A stretch of 64,000 nt of DNA. It comes from an uncultured Candidatus Rokubacteria bacterium (lineage in GTDB: Bacteria; Methylomirabilota; Methylomirabilia; Rokubacteriales; DASRDR01). Under the pieces are notes generated by a model. It made no database searches and was not told the DNA's origin. It saw only the letters and a list, made by a program, of their open reading frames with translations. Location: NCBI GenBank assembly GCA_963826115.1, contig CAWGVS010000005.1, positions 864,001 to 928,000 of the forward strand. Reading direction: 5' to 3'. The translations under genes were made by a program, and so were the position numbers. Position 1 is the stretch's first letter; every line of letters starts with the position of its first letter. This document shows positions 45,185-56,983 of the stretch, piece after piece.

Positions 45185-47224
45185 GTGGAGACGTACGGCG
45201 TCGTCGTCCGGTGGTTGCACGCGGCCGGCGCGGTCACGCTGGTCGGCGCGTTCACGTCCTTCCTGCTGGTCGCGCGGCCGGCCGCGCGCGCCGCCGGCGA
45301 CGCGGGGCACGAGCGCCTGCCGGAGCTCGACCGGCGCATCATGACGCTCGCCCGGATCGCGCTCGCGGTCACGCTGGTCGCCGCCGGGTTGGACCTCTGG
45401 CGCCAGGTGGGCGTGGCCACGGGCGCGGGCCTCCTCGAGAGCCTGGATCCCGGGCGGATCGTGTCCGTCCTCGCCGACACCCGCTACGGGATCGTGTGGC
45501 TCGCGCGGACCGGGCTCCTGCTCCTCCTGGCGGCCTTCCTCCTCCTGGCCGACGAGCGCGGCGAGAGCGACTGGCTCGCGCTCCGCGTCGAGGCTCTCGG
45601 TCTGTCGGCCGCGGCCCTCCTCCTGGGCGCCCTGGCCGGCCATGCCGCCGCGGCCGAGGTGAGCGCGCTCGCCGTGTCGTTCGACGCGCTGCACCTTCTG
45701 GCCACGGGCGTGTGGGCCGGAGGCCTCCTGCCGCTGGCGCTCTGTCTTGCGTGGGCGCGCGGGTTGCCGAGCTCGGCCGCGGCCGCGCGGGCCGCCGAGC
45801 GCTTCTCGAGGCTCGGTCTCGGCGCCGTCTCCGTGCTCGTCGTGACCGGCGGGTTCGCCGTGTGGCAGCAGGTGGGCGGCGTGCCCGCCGCCATCGGTAC
45901 CGTGTACGGGCGCTGGCTTCTGGTGAAGCTCGTCCTCGTGGCGGCCTTGATCCCCATCGCGGCGCGGAATCTCCTCGTCTGGCGGCGTCGCCTCGCCGCA
46001 CCGGGCCCGGAGAGCGCTGCCGCGGCGACCGCGCTCCTCAGGAACGTGTGGCGTGAGGCGGTTCTGGTGGCGGCGATCCTCGGTGTCGTCGCCGTGATGG
46101 GGCTGACGACGCCCGCGCTCCACGACGACGTCGTGTGGCCCCTCTCGTTCCGGTTCGACTGGGCCGCGACGAAGGCTCTCCCCGGCGTCCAGCCGCGCGT
46201 CGCGATCGGCAGCCAGGTCGCGACGCTCGGGCTCGTCGCCCTCCTCCTGGCCCTCCTGATCCGGCCGCGACGGTGGCGTGTCGCCGCGCTCGCGGGCGGG
46301 ATCGCGCTCGCGCTCGGCGCGACGGTCGCGCTCCACCCGCTGGCCGTCGACGCGAACCCCTCGACGTACGTGCGGCCGACGGTGCCGTACGCGGCCGCGT
46401 CGATCGTCCAGGGCCGGGCGATCTACCGGGCGAACTGCGAGGCGTGCCACGGCGTCGCCGGGTTCGGCGACGGCCCGGCGGGGAAGGGCCTGCCGCGCCC
46501 CCCGGCGGACCTCACCGCGCAGCACGCGGCGGACCACACGGCCGGCGATCTCTTCTGGTGGCTGTCCCACGGCATTCCCGGAAGCGGGATGCCCGGGTTC
46601 GCCGACCGGCTGAGCCCCGAGGAACGCTGGGACGCGATCAACTTTGTCCGCGCGCTGGGCGGGGCCGAGCGGTCGCGGGACCTCGGGCCGGTGGCCACCG
46701 CGCGTCCGGCGGTCGTCGCGCCCGACTTCACGTTCACGACCGGGGTCGGCGAGGGGCGGTCGCTTCGAGACTGGCGGGGCAGCGGGGTGGTGCTCCTGGT
46801 CTTCTTCACGCTCCCCGGCTCCGCGGACCGGCTCGCGGAGCTGAACCGGTTGCCGATGACCTTCAAGCTCCGGGGCGGCGAGATCGTGGGCGTCCCGCTC
46901 GGCGACGCGAGCGCAGTGTACCGGGAGCTGGCCGGCCGTTCGGTCTTTTTCCCGCTGGCGGTGGAGGGCGCGGCGGAGGCGGGCGAGACGTACATGCTGT
47001 TCCGGCGGGACCTGACGCCGGACGGTCTCAAGCCCGAGCCGCCGCCGGCGCGCCACATGGAGCTCCTGGTGGACCGGCAGGGCTACCTCCGGGCCCGCTG
47101 GATCCCGCGCGACCTCGGGCGCGAACGGGAGGGATGGGCCGACCTGAACCGTCTCCTCGAGGAAGTGGACCGGCTGTCTCGTGAGGTCCCGGTCGCGCCC
47201 ATCGCGGCCGAGCACGTGCACTGA
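45185..47224 (+). CDS. CopD family copper protein fused to cytochrome c and a thioredoxin-like domain
   Basis: RWLH, LAGHA, LHLLATGVWAGG, RFS, YGRWLLVK (CopD); CEACHG heme motif and GMPGF; APDF..VLLVFF..LVDRQGYLRARW. Confidence 0.88.
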   Translation: METYGVVVRWLHAAGAVTLVGAFTSFLLVARPAARAAGDAGHERLPELDRRIMTLARIALAVTLVAAGLDLWRQVGVATGAGLLESLDPGRIVSVLADTRYGIVWLARTGLLLLLAAFLLLADERGESDWLALRVEALGLSAAALLLGALAGHAAAAEVSALAVSFDALHLLATGVWAGGLLPLALCLAWARGLPSSAAAARAAERFSRLGLGAVSVLVVTGGFAVWQQVGGVPAAIGTVYGRWLLVKLVLVAALIPIAARNLLVWRRRLAAPGPESAAAATALLRNVWREAVLVAAILGVVAVMGLTTPALHDDVVWPLSFRFDWAATKALPGVQPRVAIGSQVATLGLVALLLALLIRPRRWRVAALAGGIALALGATVALHPLAVDANPSTYVRPTVPYAAASIVQGRAIYRANCEACHGVAGFGDGPAGKGLPRPPADLTAQHAADHTAGDLFWWLSHGIPGSGMPGFADRLSPEERWDAINFVRALGGAERSRDLGPVATARPAVVAPDFTFTTGVGEGRSLRDWRGSGVVLLVFFTLPGSADRLAELNRLPMTFKLRGGEIVGVPLGDASAVYRELAGRSVFFPLAVEGAAEAGETYMLFRRDLTPDGLKPEPPPARHMELLVDRQGYLRARWIPRDLGREREGWADLNRLLEEVDRLSREVPVAPIAAEHVH

Positions 47225-47264
47225 TCGACATGCGCCGGTCGATCGGGCATGCTCCCCTCGGACC

Positions 47265-47642
47265 ATGATGCGGCTCTGGAAGGTCGTCGTCCTCGTGAAC
47301 CTGGCGCTGGCCCTGGGGATCGGTCTCGGCTACCTCCGGTGGACGCGCGAGGTGCGCGGCCTTCGCGACGAGATCGAACGGCTCCGCGCCGAGGCGGCCC
47401 GCCCGGGCCCGCAGTCGTGGACGGTCCGGGGCATCGTGCGGTCCGTCATCCCGAAGCTGGGCGCGATCTTCCTCACCCACGAGGCCCTACCCGGTCTCAT
47501 GGACGCGATGACGATGGGTTTCGAGGCCGAGGATCCCAAGCTGCTCGACGGTCTCGCGCCCGGCGACTTCGTGCGCTTCACCGTGCGCCGGGACGGAGAG
47601 AAGCTGGTCCTGGTCATGATCGAGAAGGCGCGGACGCCGTGA
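47265..47642 (+). CDS. CusF-like copper-binding protein
   Basis: N-terminal TM; LTHEALPGLMDAMTMGF and LAPGDFVRFT. Confidence 0.85.
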   Translation: MMRLWKVVVLVNLALALGIGLGYLRWTREVRGLRDEIERLRAEAARPGPQSWTVRGIVRSVIPKLGAIFLTHEALPGLMDAMTMGFEAEDPKLLDGLAPGDFVRFTVRRDGEKLVLVMIEKARTP

Positions 47643-48052
47643 CGGCCCGCTTCTGGGCGGCCGGGCTCGCGCTCGCCGGGGTGGCCGCGGCGGGGGGCGC
47701 GCCGGCCTGGGCGATCCACACCTCGACGGACACGCCGCTCGCGATCGCCCCCGAGGACGTCCAGCGCTACCGGGAGGGGGGCGAGGAGGTCGTCGTGTTC
47801 GACCTGCGCCCGGCGGCCGCGTTCCTGAAGGGTCACCTGCCCCGGGCGCGGTCCTTGCCCCTGGGCGAGATGAAGCGTCGCGAGGCGGAGGTCCCGAGGA
47901 GCGGCCGCGTGGTGCTCTACGCGGGGACGCCCGAGGAGGCCGCGGCGGCCTACCAGCTCCTGCGCGAGGCGGGGCACCGGAACGTCATGGTGCTGGCGGG
48001 CGGGCTGCCGGCCTGGGTGCGGCTCGGCTACCCGATGGAGACCGGGCCGTGA
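47639..48052 (+). CDS. Exported rhodanese-like domain protein lacking the catalytic Cys
   Basis: FDLRP, GHLPRA, VVLYAG, LAGGLPAW; GTG overlaps upstream TGA. Confidence 0.85.
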   Translation: MTARFWAAGLALAGVAAAGGAPAWAIHTSTDTPLAIAPEDVQRYREGGEEVVVFDLRPAAAFLKGHLPRARSLPLGEMKRREAEVPRSGRVVLYAGTPEEAAAAYQLLREAGHRNVMVLAGGLPAWVRLGYPMETGP

Positions 48053-48411
48053 GCGGCGCGCGCGTCCGGCGCTGGACCGCGAGCGTCGCGGCGGCGGCGA
48101 CGCTTGGCCTCGCGGCGGGGGCGGCCGGCCAGGCGCCGGCGGGCGCCGTTCAGGAGCAGCTGCTCCTCGACAACGACACGGTGCGCGTGGCGTTCCTCGT
48201 ATTCCCTCCCGGCGCGGCGTCGGGCGAGCACGTCGGCCTCGACCCGGAGCTCGGCATCGTGCTCGAGGGCGAGCTGACGCTGATCACGGCCGCCGGTCGC
48301 GAGGTGCTGGGCCCGGGCGCGGTGCGGTGGCTGCCGGCGCTCGAGCCGCACGACGCGCGGAACGAAGGGACCGTGCCGCTCAAGCTCTGGGTCGTCCTGG
48401 TCAGGAAGTAG
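48049..48411 (+). CDS. Exported cupin domain protein
   Basis: Signal peptide; PPGAASGEH, IVLEGEL, PHDARNEG. Confidence 0.85.
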   Translation: MSGARVRRWTASVAAAATLGLAAGAAGQAPAGAVQEQLLLDNDTVRVAFLVFPPGAASGEHVGLDPELGIVLEGELTLITAAGREVLGPGAVRWLPALEPHDARNEGTVPLKLWVVLVRK

Positions 48412-48425
48412 CACGGGCCCGTCCG

Positions 48426-48896
48426 TCAGCGCCCGCGGGTGTTCCAGGCCCGCGTGATCAAGTGGTCGACCGAGATGGCGCCGGGCCCCCGCGTCAGCAG
48501 GAACAGGAGGATCGACCCCCAGACCAGGTGCTCGGACCACGCGCTCGGGTACACGAAGAGCTGGATCGTCGCGATCATCCCGAGGAGCGGCAAGGTCGCC
48601 AGGCGCGTCGCCAGCCCGAGGATCAGGAGGGTCGAGCAGGTCAGCTCGAAGCTCGTGGCCATCAGGGCCGCGATCTCCGGCGGGAACCCCGGCAGGCGGT
48701 ACTCGTCCCGGAAGAGGCCGAGCGTCGACTCCCAGCTGGACGCCTTGAGGAGCCCGGCCTTGAGGAACACGCTGGCGACGCCCAGCCGGAACAGGAGCTG
48801 GTGGAGCGAGAGCGGCACGCGGGCCAGTCGATCGAGCCAGCCCGCCACCCCGGGTCGGTGGTCGGTCACGGCGGCCTCGTACGTGGCAGTCATCAT
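48426..48896 (-). CDS. DoxX family membrane protein (BufD-like)
   Basis: LFRLGVASVFLKAG, LFRDEY, ELTCSTLLILGLATR, IQLFVYP..WSEH, GPGAISVD. Confidence 0.9.
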   Translation of the reverse strand: MMTATYEAAVTDHRPGVAGWLDRLARVPLSLHQLLFRLGVASVFLKAGLLKASSWESTLGLFRDEYRLPGFPPEIAALMATSFELTCSTLLILGLATRLATLPLLGMIATIQLFVYPSAWSEHLVWGSILLFLLTRGPGAISVDHLITRAWNTRGR

Positions 48897-49708
48897 CGGG
48901 AGCCTCCTTCCTCCATGGCCTCGGCGGCCCGAGCGGGATGCGGTGCGACGGTGAATCCCGTGATCAGCGCCTCGTCGAGCAGGGCCCGGAGCGCCGCCGG
49001 GAGGTCGAACACGGGGTTCTGGGCCATCGCGCGGGCGGCGACCGCCTCCAGCGTCTCGCCGCCGCCCAGCCCGGACCGGAACGCGTGCTCGGCCGGCTCG
49101 AGGCGGCGCATCGTCGCGACGTCGTCCTGACGGCGAATCTCGAGCCGCGTCGCTCCGGCGGCGACATCGACCACGCCGTCGGCGTCCGGCTGGTTCGCGT
49201 GCCAGATGCGGTCCACCGGCCAGGGCGAGGCAAGCCACGCGGCCGCGGGATCCAGCCGGAAGACCAGGCGATCCACGTCGTCCGCGGCCACGACGCCGAG
49301 GGCCGCCGGCGAGATCGGGACGGCCTCGTCCGCGTGGAGCGCGACGTTCATCGCCCATTCGAGCCGCGCGACGTCGGCGAGGTACGGGTCGTCTGCGCAC
49401 GGCGGGAAGCTCGCGAGGAAGTCCGGGAACGTGGCGCCGTACTCGAAGAGGCACGGCCCCGCTGGCGGGTGGCTCCGGATGAACCGGTCCGCGGCGAAGC
49501 CGAAAAAGCGGCGGTCCACGAGCCGGCAGACCACCGGGAACGTCGCCTCGAGCGCCTCCGTCAGGCTCGAGAACACGTGGTTCCAGTAGATCTGCACGCG
49601 GGCGGCCGGCGCGAGCCCGTCGCCGACGACGGCGCTCGCCACCTCGCGGGCGTCCTCCCGCCAGATCGACCGCGCGAAGCCCGCCTGGAGCTCAGGCAGC
49701 GTGGGCAT
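48893..49708 (-). CDS. DUF2063 family MNIO partner protein (BufC-like)
   Basis: LQAGFA, VQIYWN, FPVVCRLV, YGATFPDF, YLADVARLEWA. Confidence 0.88.
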   Translation of the reverse strand: MPTLPELQAGFARSIWREDAREVASAVVGDGLAPAARVQIYWNHVFSSLTEALEATFPVVCRLVDRRFFGFAADRFIRSHPPAGPCLFEYGATFPDFLASFPPCADDPYLADVARLEWAMNVALHADEAVPISPAALGVVAADDVDRLVFRLDPAAAWLASPWPVDRIWHANQPDADGVVDVAAGATRLEIRRQDDVATMRRLEPAEHAFRSGLGGGETLEAVAARAMAQNPVFDLPAALRALLDEALITGFTVAPHPARAAEAMEEGGSR

Positions 49709-50552
49709 CGCGCGTCGCGTGGAGGAGCCGGGCGTCGGCTTGCCGGGCCTCTCCCATCAGGGTGTCGAGCGGCGGAATGGCGGTGTCCCACTCGACGAGG
49801 GTCGGGCGCGGGCCGAAGCGGCGGAGCGCCTCCTCGTAGAGTGCCCACACCGCCGGGCTGACCGGCGAGCCGTGGTCGTCGATCAGGATCGGCCGGCCGT
49901 CCGTCTCGTTCACGGAGTGGCCGGCGACGTGGATCTCCCCCACCGCGCCGGCGGGGAGCGCGGCCAGGTACGCGCGGGCGTCGAGGCCGAGGTTCTCCGC
50001 CGTGACGTGGATGTTGTTCACGTCGCAGAGGAGGCCGCAGCCCGTCCGGCCGGCGAGGGCCGCCAGGAACTCGGGCTCCGGGATCGTCGAGCCGGCGAAC
50101 CGGAGGTAGCCGGATGGATTCTCGACGAGGATCCGGCGGCCGAGGGCCGTCTGGATCTCGTCCACGTTCCGGCATACCGCGTCGAGCGACTCCTCTGTGT
50201 ACGGCAGCGGGAGGAGATGGTTCAGGTAGGCGCCGCCCGCCTGGCTCCACGCCAGGTGCTCCGACACCATGGCCGGCTCGAAGCGGTCCACGAGACCCTT
50301 CAGCCGGCCGAGGTGGCGGCGGTCCACTCCGGCGGCGCTCCCGACCGACAGACCGACCGCGTGGAACGACAGCGGGTACTCGCCGCGGATCGCCTCGAGC
50401 GACCGGACCGCGGGGCCGCCGCCGAGGTAGTTCTCCGGATGGACCTCGACCCAGGACAGCGCGGGACGGGTGGCCTGGACCTCGGCGACGTGCGGGCTCC
50501 GGAGCCCGATTCCGGCCCGCGCCGGAAGCCCCTGCCCGCCGTTCAAGGTCAC
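49692..50552 (-). CDS. DUF692 multinuclear non-heme iron oxidative enzyme (BufB-like)
   Basis: GIGLRSPH, EVHPENY, HAVGLS, SEHLAW, ENPS, CDVNN, EIHVAGH, IDDHG, LVEWD. Confidence 0.95.
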   Translation of the reverse strand: MTLNGGQGLPARAGIGLRSPHVAEVQATRPALSWVEVHPENYLGGGPAVRSLEAIRGEYPLSFHAVGLSVGSAAGVDRRHLGRLKGLVDRFEPAMVSEHLAWSQAGGAYLNHLLPLPYTEESLDAVCRNVDEIQTALGRRILVENPSGYLRFAGSTIPEPEFLAALAGRTGCGLLCDVNNIHVTAENLGLDARAYLAALPAGAVGEIHVAGHSVNETDGRPILIDDHGSPVSPAVWALYEEALRRFGPRPTLVEWDTAIPPLDTLMGEARQADARLLHATRDAHAA

Positions 50553-50862
50553 GCCACCCGTCCTCGCCGCCTGGAAGGGCTGGTTAGGCGCGGGGCTGCA
50601 TGCTGCCGTTGACGAGCCGCGCGCAGGTGCCCTTCGGGACGTACACCCAGGCGTCCTTCTGGCCGTCCCGCTTGGACGTTCCCGCGCACGAGGAGTTCGC
50701 GGTCTGGCAGTCGTTCTTGGCGGCCTTCGCGATGCCGAAGCACTTCTCGGCCTCGAACTTCGGGGCCGGGGCCGGCTGGGCGCCGGTGATGGCGGGCACC
50801 GCGATCGCGGCGGCGATGGCGGAGGCGAGGAAGAGTCGCGTGTTCATCGGGTCATCTCCTTC
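50467..50862. repeat. ~395-bp direct repeat, copy A (precursor gene plus 5' end of DUF692)
   Basis: Closely matches 53941-54336 at an offset of 3474 bp. Confidence 0.9.
50584..50847 (-). CDS. DUF2282 family bufferin-type precursor (copy 1)
   Basis: Signal peptide; [27 protein letters not shown] four-Cys pattern; AAGGAG RBS. Confidence 0.92.
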
Positions 50863-51083: not shown

Positions 51084-51761
51084 CTACGCCGCAAACCGGT
51101 ACCCCTGACCGTGCACGGTCAGGATGTGCTCGGGCCGCTCGGGGTCGCGCTCGAACTTCTGGCGCAGCCGGAGAACGTGGGTGTCCACCGTCCGCGTCGT
51201 GGGGAAGCGCTCGTACCCCCAGACCTCGTCGAGCAGACGCTCGCGGGTGAGGATCTCCCCCGGATGCTCGACCAGATAGCGCAGCAGGTCGAACTCCTTG
51301 CGCGTGAGCCGGACCTCGCTCCCGGCGCGGAAGGCCTGGCGCGCCCGCAGGTGGACCCGGATGTCCGAGAACTGGAAGACGTCCATGCGCTGCCGCGGGC
51401 CGGGCCGCCGGAGGACCGCGCGGACTCGCGCGAGGAGCTCGCGCAGCGAGAACGGCTTCGTGATGTAGTCGTCCGCCCCCAGCTCGAGCCCCAGGACGCG
51501 GTCCGCCTCCTCCCCGCGCGCCGTGAGCATCACGACCGGGATGTCGATTCCCTTCCGGCGGAGCGCGCGGAGGACGTCCCAGCCGCTCGAGCCCGGCATG
51601 GCGACGTCGAGAAGGATGAGGTCCGGCCCCTCGCGGAACGCGAGGTCGAGGCCCTCCTGTCCGGACACCGCGGCCAGAGTCTGGTAGCCCTCGAACCGGA
51701 GGTTGTCCTCGAGCCCCCGCACCATCGCGGGCTCGTCGTCGACGATCAGGATGCGCGGCAT
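51084..51761 (-). CDS. OmpR/PhoB family response regulator
   Basis: ILIVDDE, LLDVAMP, MLTA, GADDYITKPF, LTRKEFDLL, TRTVDTHV. Confidence 0.96.
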   Translation of the reverse strand: MPRILIVDDEPAMVRGLEDNLRFEGYQTLAAVSGQEGLDLAFREGPDLILLDVAMPGSSGWDVLRALRRKGIDIPVVMLTARGEEADRVLGLELGADDYITKPFSLRELLARVRAVLRRPGPRQRMDVFQFSDIRVHLRARQAFRAGSEVRLTRKEFDLLRYLVEHPGEILTRERLLDEVWGYERFPTTRTVDTHVLRLRQKFERDPERPEHILTVHGQGYRFAA

Positions 51762-51771
51762 GAGGAGGCGT

Positions 51772-53310
51772 TCAATGCGGTCGGGCCGCCGGCGGGGGGC
51801 CGGGAAGCCAGAGCGTGAAGCGGCTCCCTCCGCCCGGCTGGCTGTCCACGCTGACCCGCCCTCCGTGCGCGTGCGCCACGTGCCGGACCAGCGCGAGCCC
51901 GACCCCGCTCCCGCGCCGGCCCTGGGTCTCGCTCCGCCCCACGCGGTAGAACTTGTCGAAGATCCGCCCATGCTCCTCCCCGGGGATGCCGATACCCTCG
52001 TCGCCCACGGTGATCGCGACGCCGCCGTCCCGCGGGGCCGCCTCCACCGTGAGGACCTTCCGCGTCGCGGAGTACTTGATCGCGTTGTCGATCAGGTTCG
52101 CGAGCGCCTGGCCGACGGCGTCGACGTCGATCGGCACCTCGGGCAGGTCGGGCTGGATCGCCACGTCCACCTTGAACCCCTGCCGGGCCAGGACGTAGGC
52201 GAAGCTCTCGACCGTGTCCCGGACGAGGGCCTCCACGCTCGCCGGCACCAGGTCGTAGGTGCGCCGGCCGCCCTCGATGCGCGAGAAGTCGAGGACGTTC
52301 TCGATGAGCCGGGACAGCCGCTCGCTCTCGCGGGTGATGACCTGGTAGTACTCGTGGCGCGTCTTCTCGTCGCTCACGCGTCCCATCTCGAGCGTCTCGC
52401 CGAATACCCGGATCAGGGCGAGCGGCGTCTTGAGGTCGTGCGAGACGTTGGCGACGAACTCGGCCTTGAGGCGCGCCGTCTCGGTCTCGCGCCGGACCAG
52501 CCGGTACGTCGCGAGCACGCCGATGGCGATCACCACCAGGAGGAGACCGAATGCGAGGCTGAAGAGCACCACCTGACGATCGATGGCCGCCTGCGGGGAG
52601 ACCCCCGCCGGCTGGTCGAGGGCGAGCCGCCACGCGGGCAGCGCCTCGCTGAGCGGCACCGCCACGACGGCCTCCGCCGGCCCGGCGCCCGCCCGCCGGA
52701 AGACCGGCTGGTCGCGATGGTCGGTGACCGTGAGGAGCGGCACCTCGGGCCCGCCCAGGGCCGGCTCGAGGACGTCCCGCCGGATGACGGTCGGGTCGAG
52801 CACCATCAGGGCGAGGAAGGCCGGGTTGCCCCCGCGGCGGACCAGGCAACCCACCACCAGGTCGTCACCGACGACCCGGTGCGCCTTGCCGCCCTCCCGC
52901 CACACGGACCGCCCGAGGTCGTCGAGCGGCCCCTCGAGGGCCAGCCCCGCCGGCGCCCCGCCGCTCGGGTAGACGGCGCGGCCGGCCCGGTCGAAGAGGG
53001 CGAGCCGGGCGATGAGTGGGGTGTCCGCCAGCAGGGCGTCCACCGCGTCGGCGGCAATGGCGCCGCTTCGCGCCGCCGCCTCGAGGCGCCCCATGACCGC
53101 GTACTCCGCGCTGCGGAGCCTCAGGTCGACCTTCTCCGCGACCATGATGGCCATGCTCCGGGACTGCTCCCGGAAGAGCTCGTCGGCGGACCGGCGCCAC
53201 TGGCGGAGCGAGTGGTAGCCGAGAACGGCCAGGACCACGGCGGGCACCCCGATGGCGACGAGCGCGAAGGCCGTGAAGCGGACCCAGGGCGAGCCGCGCC
53301 CTCCCATCAT
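51772..53310 (-). CDS. Membrane sensor histidine kinase
   Basis: Two TM segments, NVSHDLKTPL H-box, NLIDNAIKYS, DEGIGI, GSGVGL; ATG overlaps the upstream TGA. Confidence 0.95.
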   Translation of the reverse strand: MMGGRGSPWVRFTAFALVAIGVPAVVLAVLGYHSLRQWRRSADELFREQSRSMAIMVAEKVDLRLRSAEYAVMGRLEAAARSGAIAADAVDALLADTPLIARLALFDRAGRAVYPSGGAPAGLALEGPLDDLGRSVWREGGKAHRVVGDDLVVGCLVRRGGNPAFLALMVLDPTVIRRDVLEPALGGPEVPLLTVTDHRDQPVFRRAGAGPAEAVVAVPLSEALPAWRLALDQPAGVSPQAAIDRQVVLFSLAFGLLLVVIAIGVLATYRLVRRETETARLKAEFVANVSHDLKTPLALIRVFGETLEMGRVSDEKTRHEYYQVITRESERLSRLIENVLDFSRIEGGRRTYDLVPASVEALVRDTVESFAYVLARQGFKVDVAIQPDLPEVPIDVDAVGQALANLIDNAIKYSATRKVLTVEAAPRDGGVAITVGDEGIGIPGEEHGRIFDKFYRVGRSETQGRRGSGVGLALVRHVAHAHGGRVSVDSQPGGGSRFTLWLPGPPPAARPH

Positions 53311-53858
53311 CCCCGCTCGTCGAGGAGCCGGCGGATCATCGCCTCCGTCTCGGTGTAGGCCCCTTCCCCGATGTGCGTGTGGCGGATCACTCCACGGCGG
53401 TCCACGAGGACCGTGGTCGGCCACGCCCACGTCCGAAAGCGCTTCCAGATCGCGAAGTCGTTGTCCTGGACGACGGGATAGCGGATGCCGAGCTCCCGGA
53501 CGGCGCCTGCCACGCGGTCATGCGAGCGCTCCCAGAGGAACTCCGGGGAGTGGACGCCGACGATCGTGAGCCCCGACTCGCCGTACCGCTCGTGCCAGCC
53601 CCGCAACTGCGGGATCACGTTCTTGCAGTTGATTCAGCCGTAGGTCCAGAACTCGACCAGGACCACGCGCCCGCGGAGACTGCCGAGCGACAGTGGCTCG
53701 CTGTTGATCCAGGGACCGCCGGCGATCTCCGGCGCGGGCTGGCCGATCCCGGCCCCCCGCTGGCCGTCGGCGTGGGACGGCCAGAGAGCCCCCGCCGTGA
53801 TCGCCGCCACGAGCGCGACCAGCCCGATGGCCCAGCTGAGAGCCGCTCCTCGTTGCAT
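53307..53858 (-). CDS. Exported DipZ/TlpA-like thioredoxin (redoxin), probable selenoprotein with U-x-x-C; in-frame TGA 53634-53636 = Sec75
   Basis: GAGGTG RBS, ATG 53858, signal/TM. Reads WINSEPLS..LVEFWTYG-TGA-INCKNVIPQL..GVHSPEF..YPVVQDN..WPT..HIGEG; the two ORF-track fragments are in frame. Confidence 0.9.
53600..53613 (-). promoter_or_regulatory. Candidate SECIS hairpin of the thioredoxin
   Basis: CCCGC-AGTT-GCGGG starting 20 nt after the TGA. Confidence 0.5.
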
Positions 53859-53879
53859 CGTCGACACCTCTCGGATGCG

Positions 53880-53925
53880 AGTGTACCGAGGGGCCACGCC
53901 CGCGATGTCACGACGGTGTGAGATC
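53880..53925 (-). promoter_or_regulatory. Promoter/operator of the thioredoxin-kinase-regulator operon
   Basis: GATCTCACACCGTCGTGACA box then TACACT -10; box is 17/20 identical to 54408-54427. Confidence 0.6.
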
Positions 53926-53940
53926 CGCCCCGGCGCCCAA

Positions 53941-54026
53941 CGGGTGGCGCGAGCCTCGGTGACGCGCGGGCCGGGGAGCCCGATCCCGGCCCGCGCCGGA
54001 AGCCCCTGCCCGCCGTTCAAGGTCAC
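53941..54026 (-). pseudogene. Truncated 5' remnant of the DUF692 gene
   Basis: MTLNGGQGLPARAGIGL identical to the intact DUF692 start; similarity ends after ~29 codons. Confidence 0.8.
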
Positions 54027-54057: not shown

Positions 54058-54321
54058 CTACGCGCGCGGCTGCATACTGCCGTTGACGATCCGGTCGCAG
54101 GTGCCCTTCGGGACGTACACCCAGGCGTCCTTCTGGCCGTCCCGCTTGGACGTCCCCGCGCACGAGGAGTTTGCGGTCTGGCAGTCGTTCTTGGCGGCCT
54201 TCGCGACGCCGTAGCACTTCTCGGCCTCGAACTTCGGGGCCGGGGCCGGCTGGGCGCCGGTGATGGCGGGGACCGCGATCGCCGCGGCGATGGCGGAGGC
54301 GAGGAAGAGTCGCGTGTTCAT
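54058..54321 (-). CDS. DUF2282 family bufferin-type precursor (copy 2)
   Basis: 83/87 aa identical to copy 1; AAGGAGG RBS. Confidence 0.92.
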
Positions 54322-56482: not shown

Positions 56483-56983
56483 ATGAGGGTCACGCTCCGA
56501 TGTGGGCCGGCGCTCCTGGCGCTGCTGGCGGCCGTCGCGCTGCCGGCCGCCTCGCGCGTGGGCCACGCCCAGTCGCAGCCGCCGATCGAGCTGATCAAGG
56601 TGGATCAGCTGAACGCCATGCTGAAGAAGGGCACGCCGGCCCAGATCATCGACGTCCGGAGCCGGCAGGAGTTCCTGACGCGGCACATCAAGGGGGCCGT
56701 CTCGATCCCGCTCGACACCATCGAGCTCCGGGTCGGCGAGGTCTCCCGCCAGGGCCTGGTCGTCCTCTACTGAGCGTGCCCACACCACCTGGCCAGTTTG
56801 GCCTACGGCAAGCTCCATCAGATGGGATACCGGAACCTGAAGGTCCTGGACGAGGGCATCCCCGGCTGGGTGCAGCAAGGGCTGCCGACCGAGGGCTGGC
56901 AGTCCCGCGGCCCGTTCGTCCCGCACGGGGACGAGACCTATCGCGCCGTGGGAGTGGAGCCCCCCCCGCGGACGACCCAATGA
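56483..56983 (+). CDS. Exported rhodanese-domain protein, probable selenoprotein (Y-U-A-C-P); in-frame TGA 56771-56773 = Sec97
   Basis: GGAGG RBS and signal peptide. Reads IIDVRS..HIKGAVSIP..VVLY-TGA-ACPHHLAS..GYRNLKVLDEGIPGW; final stop overlaps the Fur-family ATG. Confidence 0.88.
56777..56810 (+). promoter_or_regulatory. Candidate SECIS hairpin of the rhodanese
   Basis: Upper stem GGCCA-GTT-TGGCC (56791-56803), lower stem TGCC/GGCA. Confidence 0.5.

Follow-up and report, generated by a model that had tools for sequence, protein, structure and literature searches.

A recoded UGA in a DipZ-like redoxin gene of Rokubacteria and its predicted place in an envelope oxidation response

A thioredoxin-like gene from an uncultured Candidatus Rokubacteria bacterium is cut in two by an in-frame TGA, which raises the question of whether this codon is read as selenocysteine (Sec, U) and, if so, what the resulting redoxin would do in the cell envelope. 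The gene lies in a 64,000-nt stretch of contig CAWGVS010000005.1 (assembly GCA_963826115.1), here called the window, and all coordinates are positions in it. We confirmed on the minus strand that the open reading frame (ORF) track splits the gene into 53634-54026 and 53307-53618 and that, as the initial annotation had proposed, the two parts are in frame. The redoxin gene is a single 183-codon frame at 53858-53307 (-), interrupted at codon 75 (53636-53634); with this TGA read as U75, translation gives 183 residues, and the terminal codon is also TGA. Around codon 75, the minus strand reads TTC TGG ACC TAC GGC TGA ATC AAC TGC AAG AAC GTG ATC CCG CAG TTG CGG, and the translation around the TGA is FWTYG-U-INC-KNVIPQLRGW. 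Bacterial selenocysteine recoding is a textbook mechanism. From sequence comparison, we conclude that UGA75 is almost certainly recoded as Sec by SelB and tRNA-Sec acting on a hairpin 20 nt downstream, a bacterial selenocysteine insertion sequence (bSECIS), to give one 183-aa protein. The elements of the gene are the following.

53307..53858 (-): selenoprotein gene, 183 aa, with a predicted signal peptide (about residues 1-32) and a DipZ-like thioredoxin domain; active site U75-I-N-C78 and W-P145 loop
53634..53636 (-): in-frame TGA, codon 75, predicted to be read as Sec from the sequence and from Cys in homologues
53599..53614 (-): bSECIS upper stem-loop, U-CCCGC-AGUU-GCGGG-G, with the loop G at +27 after the UGA
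53865..53872 (-): probable ribosome-binding site GAGAGGTG, 6 nt 5' of the ATG

Both halves of the gene look coding, with a G+C content at third codon positions of 0.93 and 0.93 on either side of the TGA. From TGA to stop there are 107-111 codons in 61/61 TGA orthologues (109 after U in the window gene), and the earlier impression that both halves are intact stands. The ATG at 53858 is preceded by a GAGGTG site; a start at GTG 54026, in the upstream ORF, was rejected, that stretch being a 29-codon copy of the 5' end of bufB. As had been expected, standard pipelines miss the intact gene: the split is real, and 20 of the 120 protein matches listed are 103-aa fragments that begin at (V/M)(I/V/L)PQL. 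In three database proteins (P0042, P0064, and P0069), the Sec position is filled by W or G, possibly because gene callers applied code 4 or 25 to the TGA. Among sequencing-run contigs, the best share was 0.16, and none of the listed pieces spanned the TGA.

The same TGA recurs across the order. A search of 151 genomes of the order for orthologues gave matches in 121 at E<=1e-20. At E<1e-60 there are 113 matches, 105 with one TGA and 8 with none, so the codon is not unique to this assembly; uniqueness together with a decaying downstream half was to have refuted recoding. At the Sec column, 90 distinct loci comprise 61 TGA forms, 8 close Cys forms, 20 distant Cys forms, and 1 frameshifted form. 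The homologue alignment places the TGA column at codon 75 opposite a conserved Cys order-wide, as the initial annotation had anticipated; both active-site cysteines are kept in all 66 aligned Cys proteins, and C73 is invariant among these Cys forms. Across the phylum, the TGA motif was found in 126/201 genomes searched, other orders and some NHL paralogues included, with 0 control matches. A genome labelled Binatia belongs to a phylum where 1/151 genomes searched had a motif match; since that sole match is an NHL-type paralogue, the stand-alone Sec redoxin is unseen in those 151 genomes. Viral contigs searched for the redoxin gave 0 matches. Records titled Deferrimicrobiaceae, Dormiibacterota, Limnocylindria, Nitrosotalea, and Acidoferrum (L069, L080, L070, L074, L077, L082) nest among Rokubacteria, at ~70% GC. 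Since two of them, L069 (=G097) and L080 (=G144), have DNA identical to genomes placed in the Rokubacteria order, such titles are unreliable for claiming spread. The frame of L117 / L148 (G031) is shifted by the loss of one base from the run of C in the hairpin, likely an assembly error.

The CCCGC-AGTT-GCGGG hairpin described at the outset was found at 53613-53600, 20 nt downstream of the TGA. Its AGUU loop starts 25 nt after the UGA on a 6-bp stem of -13.1 kcal/mol, within the bSECIS limits given in the accessible text of PMC13188914 (loop 3-9 nt, stem 4-16 bp, G in the first two loop positions, 16-37 nt from the UGA, minimum free energy <= -7.5 kcal/mol). Its energy is unremarkable against shuffles (z -1.21 for 36 nt, +0.92 for 67 nt, and +0.30 for 97 nt), and folding z-scores were dropped as support because they are not significant; the significance of the hairpin comes from its conservation, not from its folding energy. 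Among the 61 TGA orthologues, codon +8 is CCG in 61/61 and codon +11 is CGG in 61/61, while codon +10 is TTG in 60/61 (60/60 Leu), the remaining one having GTG and a loop AGGU. TTG makes up 1.7% of Leu codons in the host genome, and other invariant Pro, Arg, Leu, Gly, and Val codons near the hairpin vary freely in the same orthologues. The hairpin 14-mer is altered in 7/8 close Cys orthologues and is identical in 55/79 usable metagenome matches (best 80 of >120). Distant TGA forms have other, compensated stems with a 3-nt loop (TTCCCTG-GGT-CAGGGAA, TGCCTTG-GGT-CAAGGCA, and TTCCCTC-GGT-GAGGGAA) that keep the G at +27, even at the price of swapping PQLR for PWVR or PWVK. When we required a stem of >=5 bp and a loop G at +27 followed by G or T, 134/142 distinct TGA forms passed, compared to 2/32 Cys forms. 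Only 559 of the 113,089 TGA triplets in the host genome pass (0.5%), and the terminal TGA of the redoxin gene fails. Together, these findings indicate that the hairpin is selected at the RNA level beyond protein coding and is tied to the UGA.

The host genome (6.24 Mb, 12 contigs, 99% complete, 5.3% contaminated), which among named relatives is nearest to Rokubacteria/Methylomirabilota, encodes the machinery that recoding needs. The search for selA, selB, selC, and selD that had been called for found all four: selA at 576 bits (cut-off 268), selB at 348 (cut-off 242), tRNA-Sec(TCA) on the same contig, and selD at 393 (cut-off 125). The host selD itself carries one in-frame TGA. Two counts weigh against recoding in every genome that has the TGA form: selA was unseen in 10 of the 61 tested, and 7 of these have no match to selA, selB, or tRNA-Sec, the other 3 having selB and/or tRNA-Sec. 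Each of the 7 carries a selD with a TGA, and their assemblies are fragmented into 220-460 contigs; an unassembled selABC block likely explains them. These seven genomes are what speaks for a pseudogene, a sequencing error, or a reassigned stop codon, an explanation that we regard as effectively refuted: the same TGA stands in >100 genomes, the part downstream of it is intact, the codon-locked hairpin goes with the TGA, and the redoxin gene and its neighbors end in TGA as a normal stop. Separately, ARAGORN called a 'tRNA-Pyl(cta)' at C12:686301-686373 of the host genome (G000); its D-arm and anticodon stem are broken, and it is probably a degenerate tRNA remnant rather than a Pyl tRNA.

A quick tree, rooted at the midpoint and built from few columns without L117 and L132 and without a clade test, groups all 61 Sec forms into a single branch (SH-aLRT 98), and the 8 close Cys forms are dispersed inside it. 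The Sec/Cys label needs 6 changes on this tree, >=4 of them forced by well-supported branches, which suggests one gain of Sec and then repeated returns to Cys. Since 7/8 close-Cys-form genomes keep selA, loss of the Sec machinery is not the cause of the change. The family offers a natural bSECIS experiment, in which a hairpin locked in its codons decays once Sec has changed to Cys, a change that recurred.

Genome-wide scans for further selenoproteins gave leads only; the one by hairpin pattern was noisy, and the one by codon bias, with the thresholds used, did not pick up the redoxin gene. At C2:160669-161172, C6:536348-536833, and C5:407567, the host genome has other TlpA/Prx-like genes with UxxC and an AGUU-loop hairpin, making the AGUU loop a recurring SECIS form there.

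What kind of protein does the restored frame encode? The redoxin scores over the Pfam cut-off for PF00578 (AhpC-TSA), PF08534 (Redoxin; 38 bits, cut-off 26.6), and PF13905 (Thioredoxin_8), and it has a UxxC motif. Nine NCBIfam families match it (profiles of the TlpA/ResA/StoA/DsbE/WAxxUGC kind), none above the curated cut-off. Its solved-structure matches are DipZ (PDB 2hyx, E 4.5e-42), SOQ1 (7djj, 2.5e-24), and NHLRC2 (6gc1, 8.1e-23), and the structure predicted for a natural Cys orthologue (pLDDT 90) superposes on DipZ with a TM of 0.78 and a root-mean-square deviation of 1.3 A. DipZ has an N-terminal CcdA-like domain, and its structure 2hyx has an extra C-terminal domain. The earlier label "DipZ-like" is thus apt for the thioredoxin domain, but the protein is not DipZ itself. 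Residues 6-25 form the sole N-terminal hydrophobic stretch, and there is no N-terminal or lipobox Cys. In many orthologues the presumed cleavage boundary is of the small-x-small-Q type, such as TEA-Q, AGA-Q, or AHA-Q; the window protein has SHADG-Q there. Because of these features, export by a cleaved signal peptide is likely; the initial annotation was right about 183 aa, but of the two locations it offered, membrane-anchored or periplasmic, an anchor is the less likely in view of the orthologue N-termini.

We also observed Trx-NHL (thioredoxin-NHL) proteins of ~500 aa, of the NHLRC2/SOQ1 type, that read FWT(F/Y)C-U-INC: L135, L144, L136 (G024, G021, G168), and L153. Here, Sec is at the second Cys of CCINC; two have an AGUU hairpin, and two fail the hairpin test. 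None was found in the host genome.

An ordinary ResA/CcmG-like reductase, serving cytochrome c maturation or disulfide housekeeping in a neighborhood that is incidental, is one function considered for such a fold. The redoxin does have weak similarity to ResA (58.5 bits, cut-off 170) and structural matches to it. We nevertheless consider this function very unlikely, as no maturation genes were recognized in the 40 commonest neighbor clusters (only some of which are annotated), the host genome has several other TlpA-like paralogues, and a DNA box and an operon are conserved with the redoxin across the order. These neighbors are as follows.

51772..53310 (-): sensor histidine kinase whose start codon overlaps the stop of the redoxin gene (ATGA); its periplasmic domain has an invariant Met56 and lacks a conserved Cys, and no HAMP match was obtained
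51084..51761 (-): OmpR/PhoB-family response regulator, from profile matches
53904..53925 (-): tandem-repeat box GATCTCACACCGTCGTGACATC, consensus GATTT[C/G]ACAnnnn[T/C]GTGAC, 54/69 loci, 29.4 bits
54406..54427 (-): second box copy, upstream of a bufA copy, the strongest site in the genome, 33.0 bits

We counted operon genes over 58 loci at >=58% identity, using for each gene only those with enough DNA. Downstream of the redoxin are the kinase in 47/57 loci, the regulator in 41/52, msrP in 21/47, and msrQ in 21/46, with MsrP and MsrQ representatives above the NCBIfam cut-off. A smaller sulfite-oxidase-type molybdoprotein lies downstream in 14/50, and either molybdoenzyme in 33/46. Where no kinase match was found, msrPQ is still present downstream in 6/11 loci, and three further Cys-form regions (one a duplicate) also carry msrPQ. 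The tandem box, with 11-bp spacing, was not found in 10 further regions scanned. A box matrix built without the host genome and run over its 6.2 Mb at a threshold of 15 bits returned three sites, two of them strong (33.0 and 29.4) against a reversed-genome maximum of 17.4. Both strong sites are at the window locus, one 5' of the redoxin and the other 5' of the upstream bufA copy. The box is probably the binding site of the adjacent OmpR-type regulator. Scans for a sigma-70 promoter and a terminator found nothing.

Within the periplasmic domain of the kinase, Met56 is conserved in 45/45 and Met63 in 39/45 (Leu in the window kinase), and the best Cys column reaches 12/45. When the whole kinase was searched by fold, the matches were to kinase cores and named no sensor fold; in the model, the strand order of the sensor resembles a double PAS/Cache domain. 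These features bear on a quite improbable alternative, that the redoxin is an accessory sensor setting kinase activity by contact, or that the ATGA overlap couples kinase translation to UGA read-through and selenium supply. The order redoxin-kinase-regulator is fixed in 47/57 loci, and the stop/start overlap occurs in the window and in 8/8 loci L055-L062, as such a sensor would suggest. However, most other loci have no overlap, the periplasmic domain has no conserved Cys, the redoxin still stands beside msrPQ where no kinase was found, and Cys forms retain the same operon. A predicted complex of a natural Cys-form redoxin with the periplasmic domain of its kinase scored 0.24 against a mark of 0.32, with controls not folded, and counts neither for nor against contact.

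On balance, we lean toward the exported redoxin being the cysteine-repair arm of an envelope oxidation response, in partnership with MsrPQ. In CxxC redox chemistry, the first residue attacks and the second Cys resolves. By this proposal, the redoxin would reach the periplasm by its signal peptide, where the U75 selenolate would attack disulfides or sulfenylated cysteines of envelope proteins, C78 would resolve the mixed selenyl-sulfide, and a CcdA/DsbD-type membrane carrier would re-reduce the enzyme. The redoxin would thus supply the cysteine arm and MsrPQ the methionine arm. Oxidation would be sensed by the co-transcribed kinase, possibly at the invariant Met56, and the tandem box would be where the regulator acts to switch the operon on. 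Since the same box also lies 5' of a bufferin precursor gene in the host sub-lineage, the response would be tied there to copper stress.

Several observations weigh against this cysteine-repair role. Neither molybdoenzyme is within range in 13/46 loci, and the operon counts are not independent because the loci are kin. At the window locus itself, msrPQ is absent, and no box of >=15 bits accompanies either of the two msrP copies elsewhere in the host genome. MsrP takes its electrons from MsrQ and needs no thioredoxin. Met56, in a conserved helix, is among 12 periplasmic columns that do not vary, and its role may be structural. The electron donor of the redoxin is a guess because the one CcdA-type gene of the host genome is unlinked to the redoxin locus. 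We note separately that at C11:105501-107050 of the host genome (L151), msrP is directly followed by a YciW-related CxxU selenoprotein, which matches NF053654 above cut-off.

Small exported peptides rich in Met and Lys precede the redoxin in 8/79 rows (one a duplicate); they are absent from the window locus, and the box lies upstream of the Met-rich peptide in four loci. Those just 5' of the redoxin in L064, L098, L100, L112, L097, L146, and L143 are Met/Lys/Asp-rich repeat peptides and, by analogy, resemble sacrificial Met-rich peptides. There is another function, one that we consider unlikely: the redoxin may itself be the scavenger or reductase, with the selenolate reducing hypochlorous acid (HOCl) or chloramines, peroxides, or methionine sulfoxide (MetO; e.g., in the Met-rich peptide) and C78 resolving the selenenic acid. 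Its lasting linkage is to msrPQ and Met-rich peptides, not to cytochrome c or dsb genes, and no CcdA was seen among the common neighbor clusters. SOQ1 and NHLRC2, in the accessible part of bioRxiv 2024.11.01.621559, are reported without classical insulin-reducing activity. On the other hand, the same source assigns the Msr activity of SOQ1 to a separate C-terminal domain; the fold, CxxC, and W-P loop are as in TlpA/ResA reductases; and the redoxin has neither a peroxiredoxin TxxC nor an MsrA/B motif.

The operon is embedded in genes of the bufferin type, and bufferin is a copper chelator.

54058..54321 (-): bufA-like (DUF2282) precursor gene, the second copy, immediately upstream of the redoxin; its DNA is 92.7% identical to that of the downstream copy across 398 nt
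53940..54026 (-): bufB 5' stub of 29 codons left by the bufA duplication, from sequence comparison
48426..50847 (-): bufferin-type cluster downstream of the regulator, with bufA, bufB (MNIO, above cut-off), a DUF2063 partner, and DoxX, from profile matches

Bufferin-type genes flank the redoxin operon in the host genome and two genus relatives, and a bufferin linkage as a general feature of redoxin loci was rejected on finding it in these 3 genomes of the genus only. In one relative (G043), the box precedes the downstream bufA. Adjoining the cluster, at 45185-48411 (+), are a CopD-cytochrome c-redoxin-like fusion, a small unannotated protein, a rhodanese, and a cupin, a neighborhood that suggests a relation to copper.

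The window holds a second probable selenoprotein at 56483-56980 (+), an exported rhodanese with VVLY-U-ACP and the TGA at 56771-56773. It has a GGCCA-GUU-UGGCC hairpin, and its match to rhodanese_LYCAU is below cut-off, with U at the first, not the second, position.

The redoxin belongs to a catalogued general kind, and its regulon context is testable. The accessible text of PMC13188914 catalogues UxxC selenoproteins of the thioredoxin fold as 'Redoxin family protein' (PF08534), 'Prx-like thiol:disulfide oxidoreductase' (PF00578), and 'Thiol-disulfide isomerase-like' (cd02966), which share with our protein the UxxC, the fold, the Pfam families, and a consensus-type bSECIS. It reports a Methylomirabilota metagenome-assembled genome with 63 predicted selenoproteins and, as far as that text goes, does not mention DipZ. 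DipZ-type motifs (UINC, FWTY, DFWT, EFWT, GVHS/T) were absent from the GOS selenoprotein supplements. In the literature searched, we found no curated model or publication on a DipZ-type or msrPQ-linked selenoprotein, nor a relevant one on selenoproteins of Rokubacteria or on NHL-repeat selenoproteins, and the family may be listed elsewhere; NCBIfam already holds at least one groundwater-derived (seleno)protein model, NF053654, and the redoxin may for that reason be listed already. Databases hold this gene, close to core in a soil order that is abundant and uncultured, as 103-aa fragments, a systematic mis-annotation that our analysis corrects. The links to msrPQ, to a kinase bearing the Met, and to a defined DNA box also make the function of this selenoprotein family easier to approach.

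The closest regulatory precedent is Escherichia coli HprSR (YedVW/HypVW), where a Met-dependent HOCl sensor controls msrPQ through periplasmic kinase residues Met72/Met153, according to the accessible text of bioRxiv 2021.09.09.459708. As in that system, two-component genes stand beside msrPQ in ~45% of relatives, though not in the window, and the kinase has conserved periplasmic Met residues (Met56 and Met63 here). Unlike in E. coli, where the same text mentions no redoxin at the locus, the operon begins with one. By curated models, the two systems are non-orthologous: the regulator scores 162 bits (HprR cut-off 353) and the kinase 127 (heavy-metal-sensor cut-off 292), the latter matching best to PnpS/PhoR-like kinases with no HAMP match. 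A second precedent is SigF-MrpX-YedY of Azospira suillum, described in the accessible part of PMC4436054 as a Met-rich periplasmic peptide beside an MsrP-type reductase that scavenges hypochlorite. A minority of redoxin loci share that pairing, but control is by an extracytoplasmic function sigma factor (SigF) there and by a two-component system here.

A bolder reading of these comparisons, which we rate as doubtful, is a hitherto undescribed envelope-oxidation regulon of Rokubacteria independent of HprSR. In it, a methionine-switch kinase, the regulator, and the box would induce an exported DipZ/SOQ1/NHLRC2-type selenoenzyme that itself reduces MetO or reactive chlorine, with MsrPQ, the Met-rich peptide, or bufferin as exchangeable effectors. 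If true, the Sec forms, including the C-U-I-N-C Trx-NHL paralogues, would identify the attacking residue of the CCINC motif in NHLRC2/SOQ1 as its second Cys.

Among enzymes, the thioredoxin-like domain of SOQ1 is a disulfide reductase that feeds its Msr domain, according to the accessible part of bioRxiv 2024.11.01.621559. The redoxin shares with DipZ (2hyx, 5cyy), SOQ1, and NHLRC2 the motifs FW-x-Y-x-C-I-N-C, GVH-x-PE, and W-P. It differs from all three in being a stand-alone domain behind a signal peptide, without a fused membrane, NHL, or C-terminal domain, and in Sec replacing the first Cys; compared to DipZ, it matches only residues 55-200 of the 352-aa chain.

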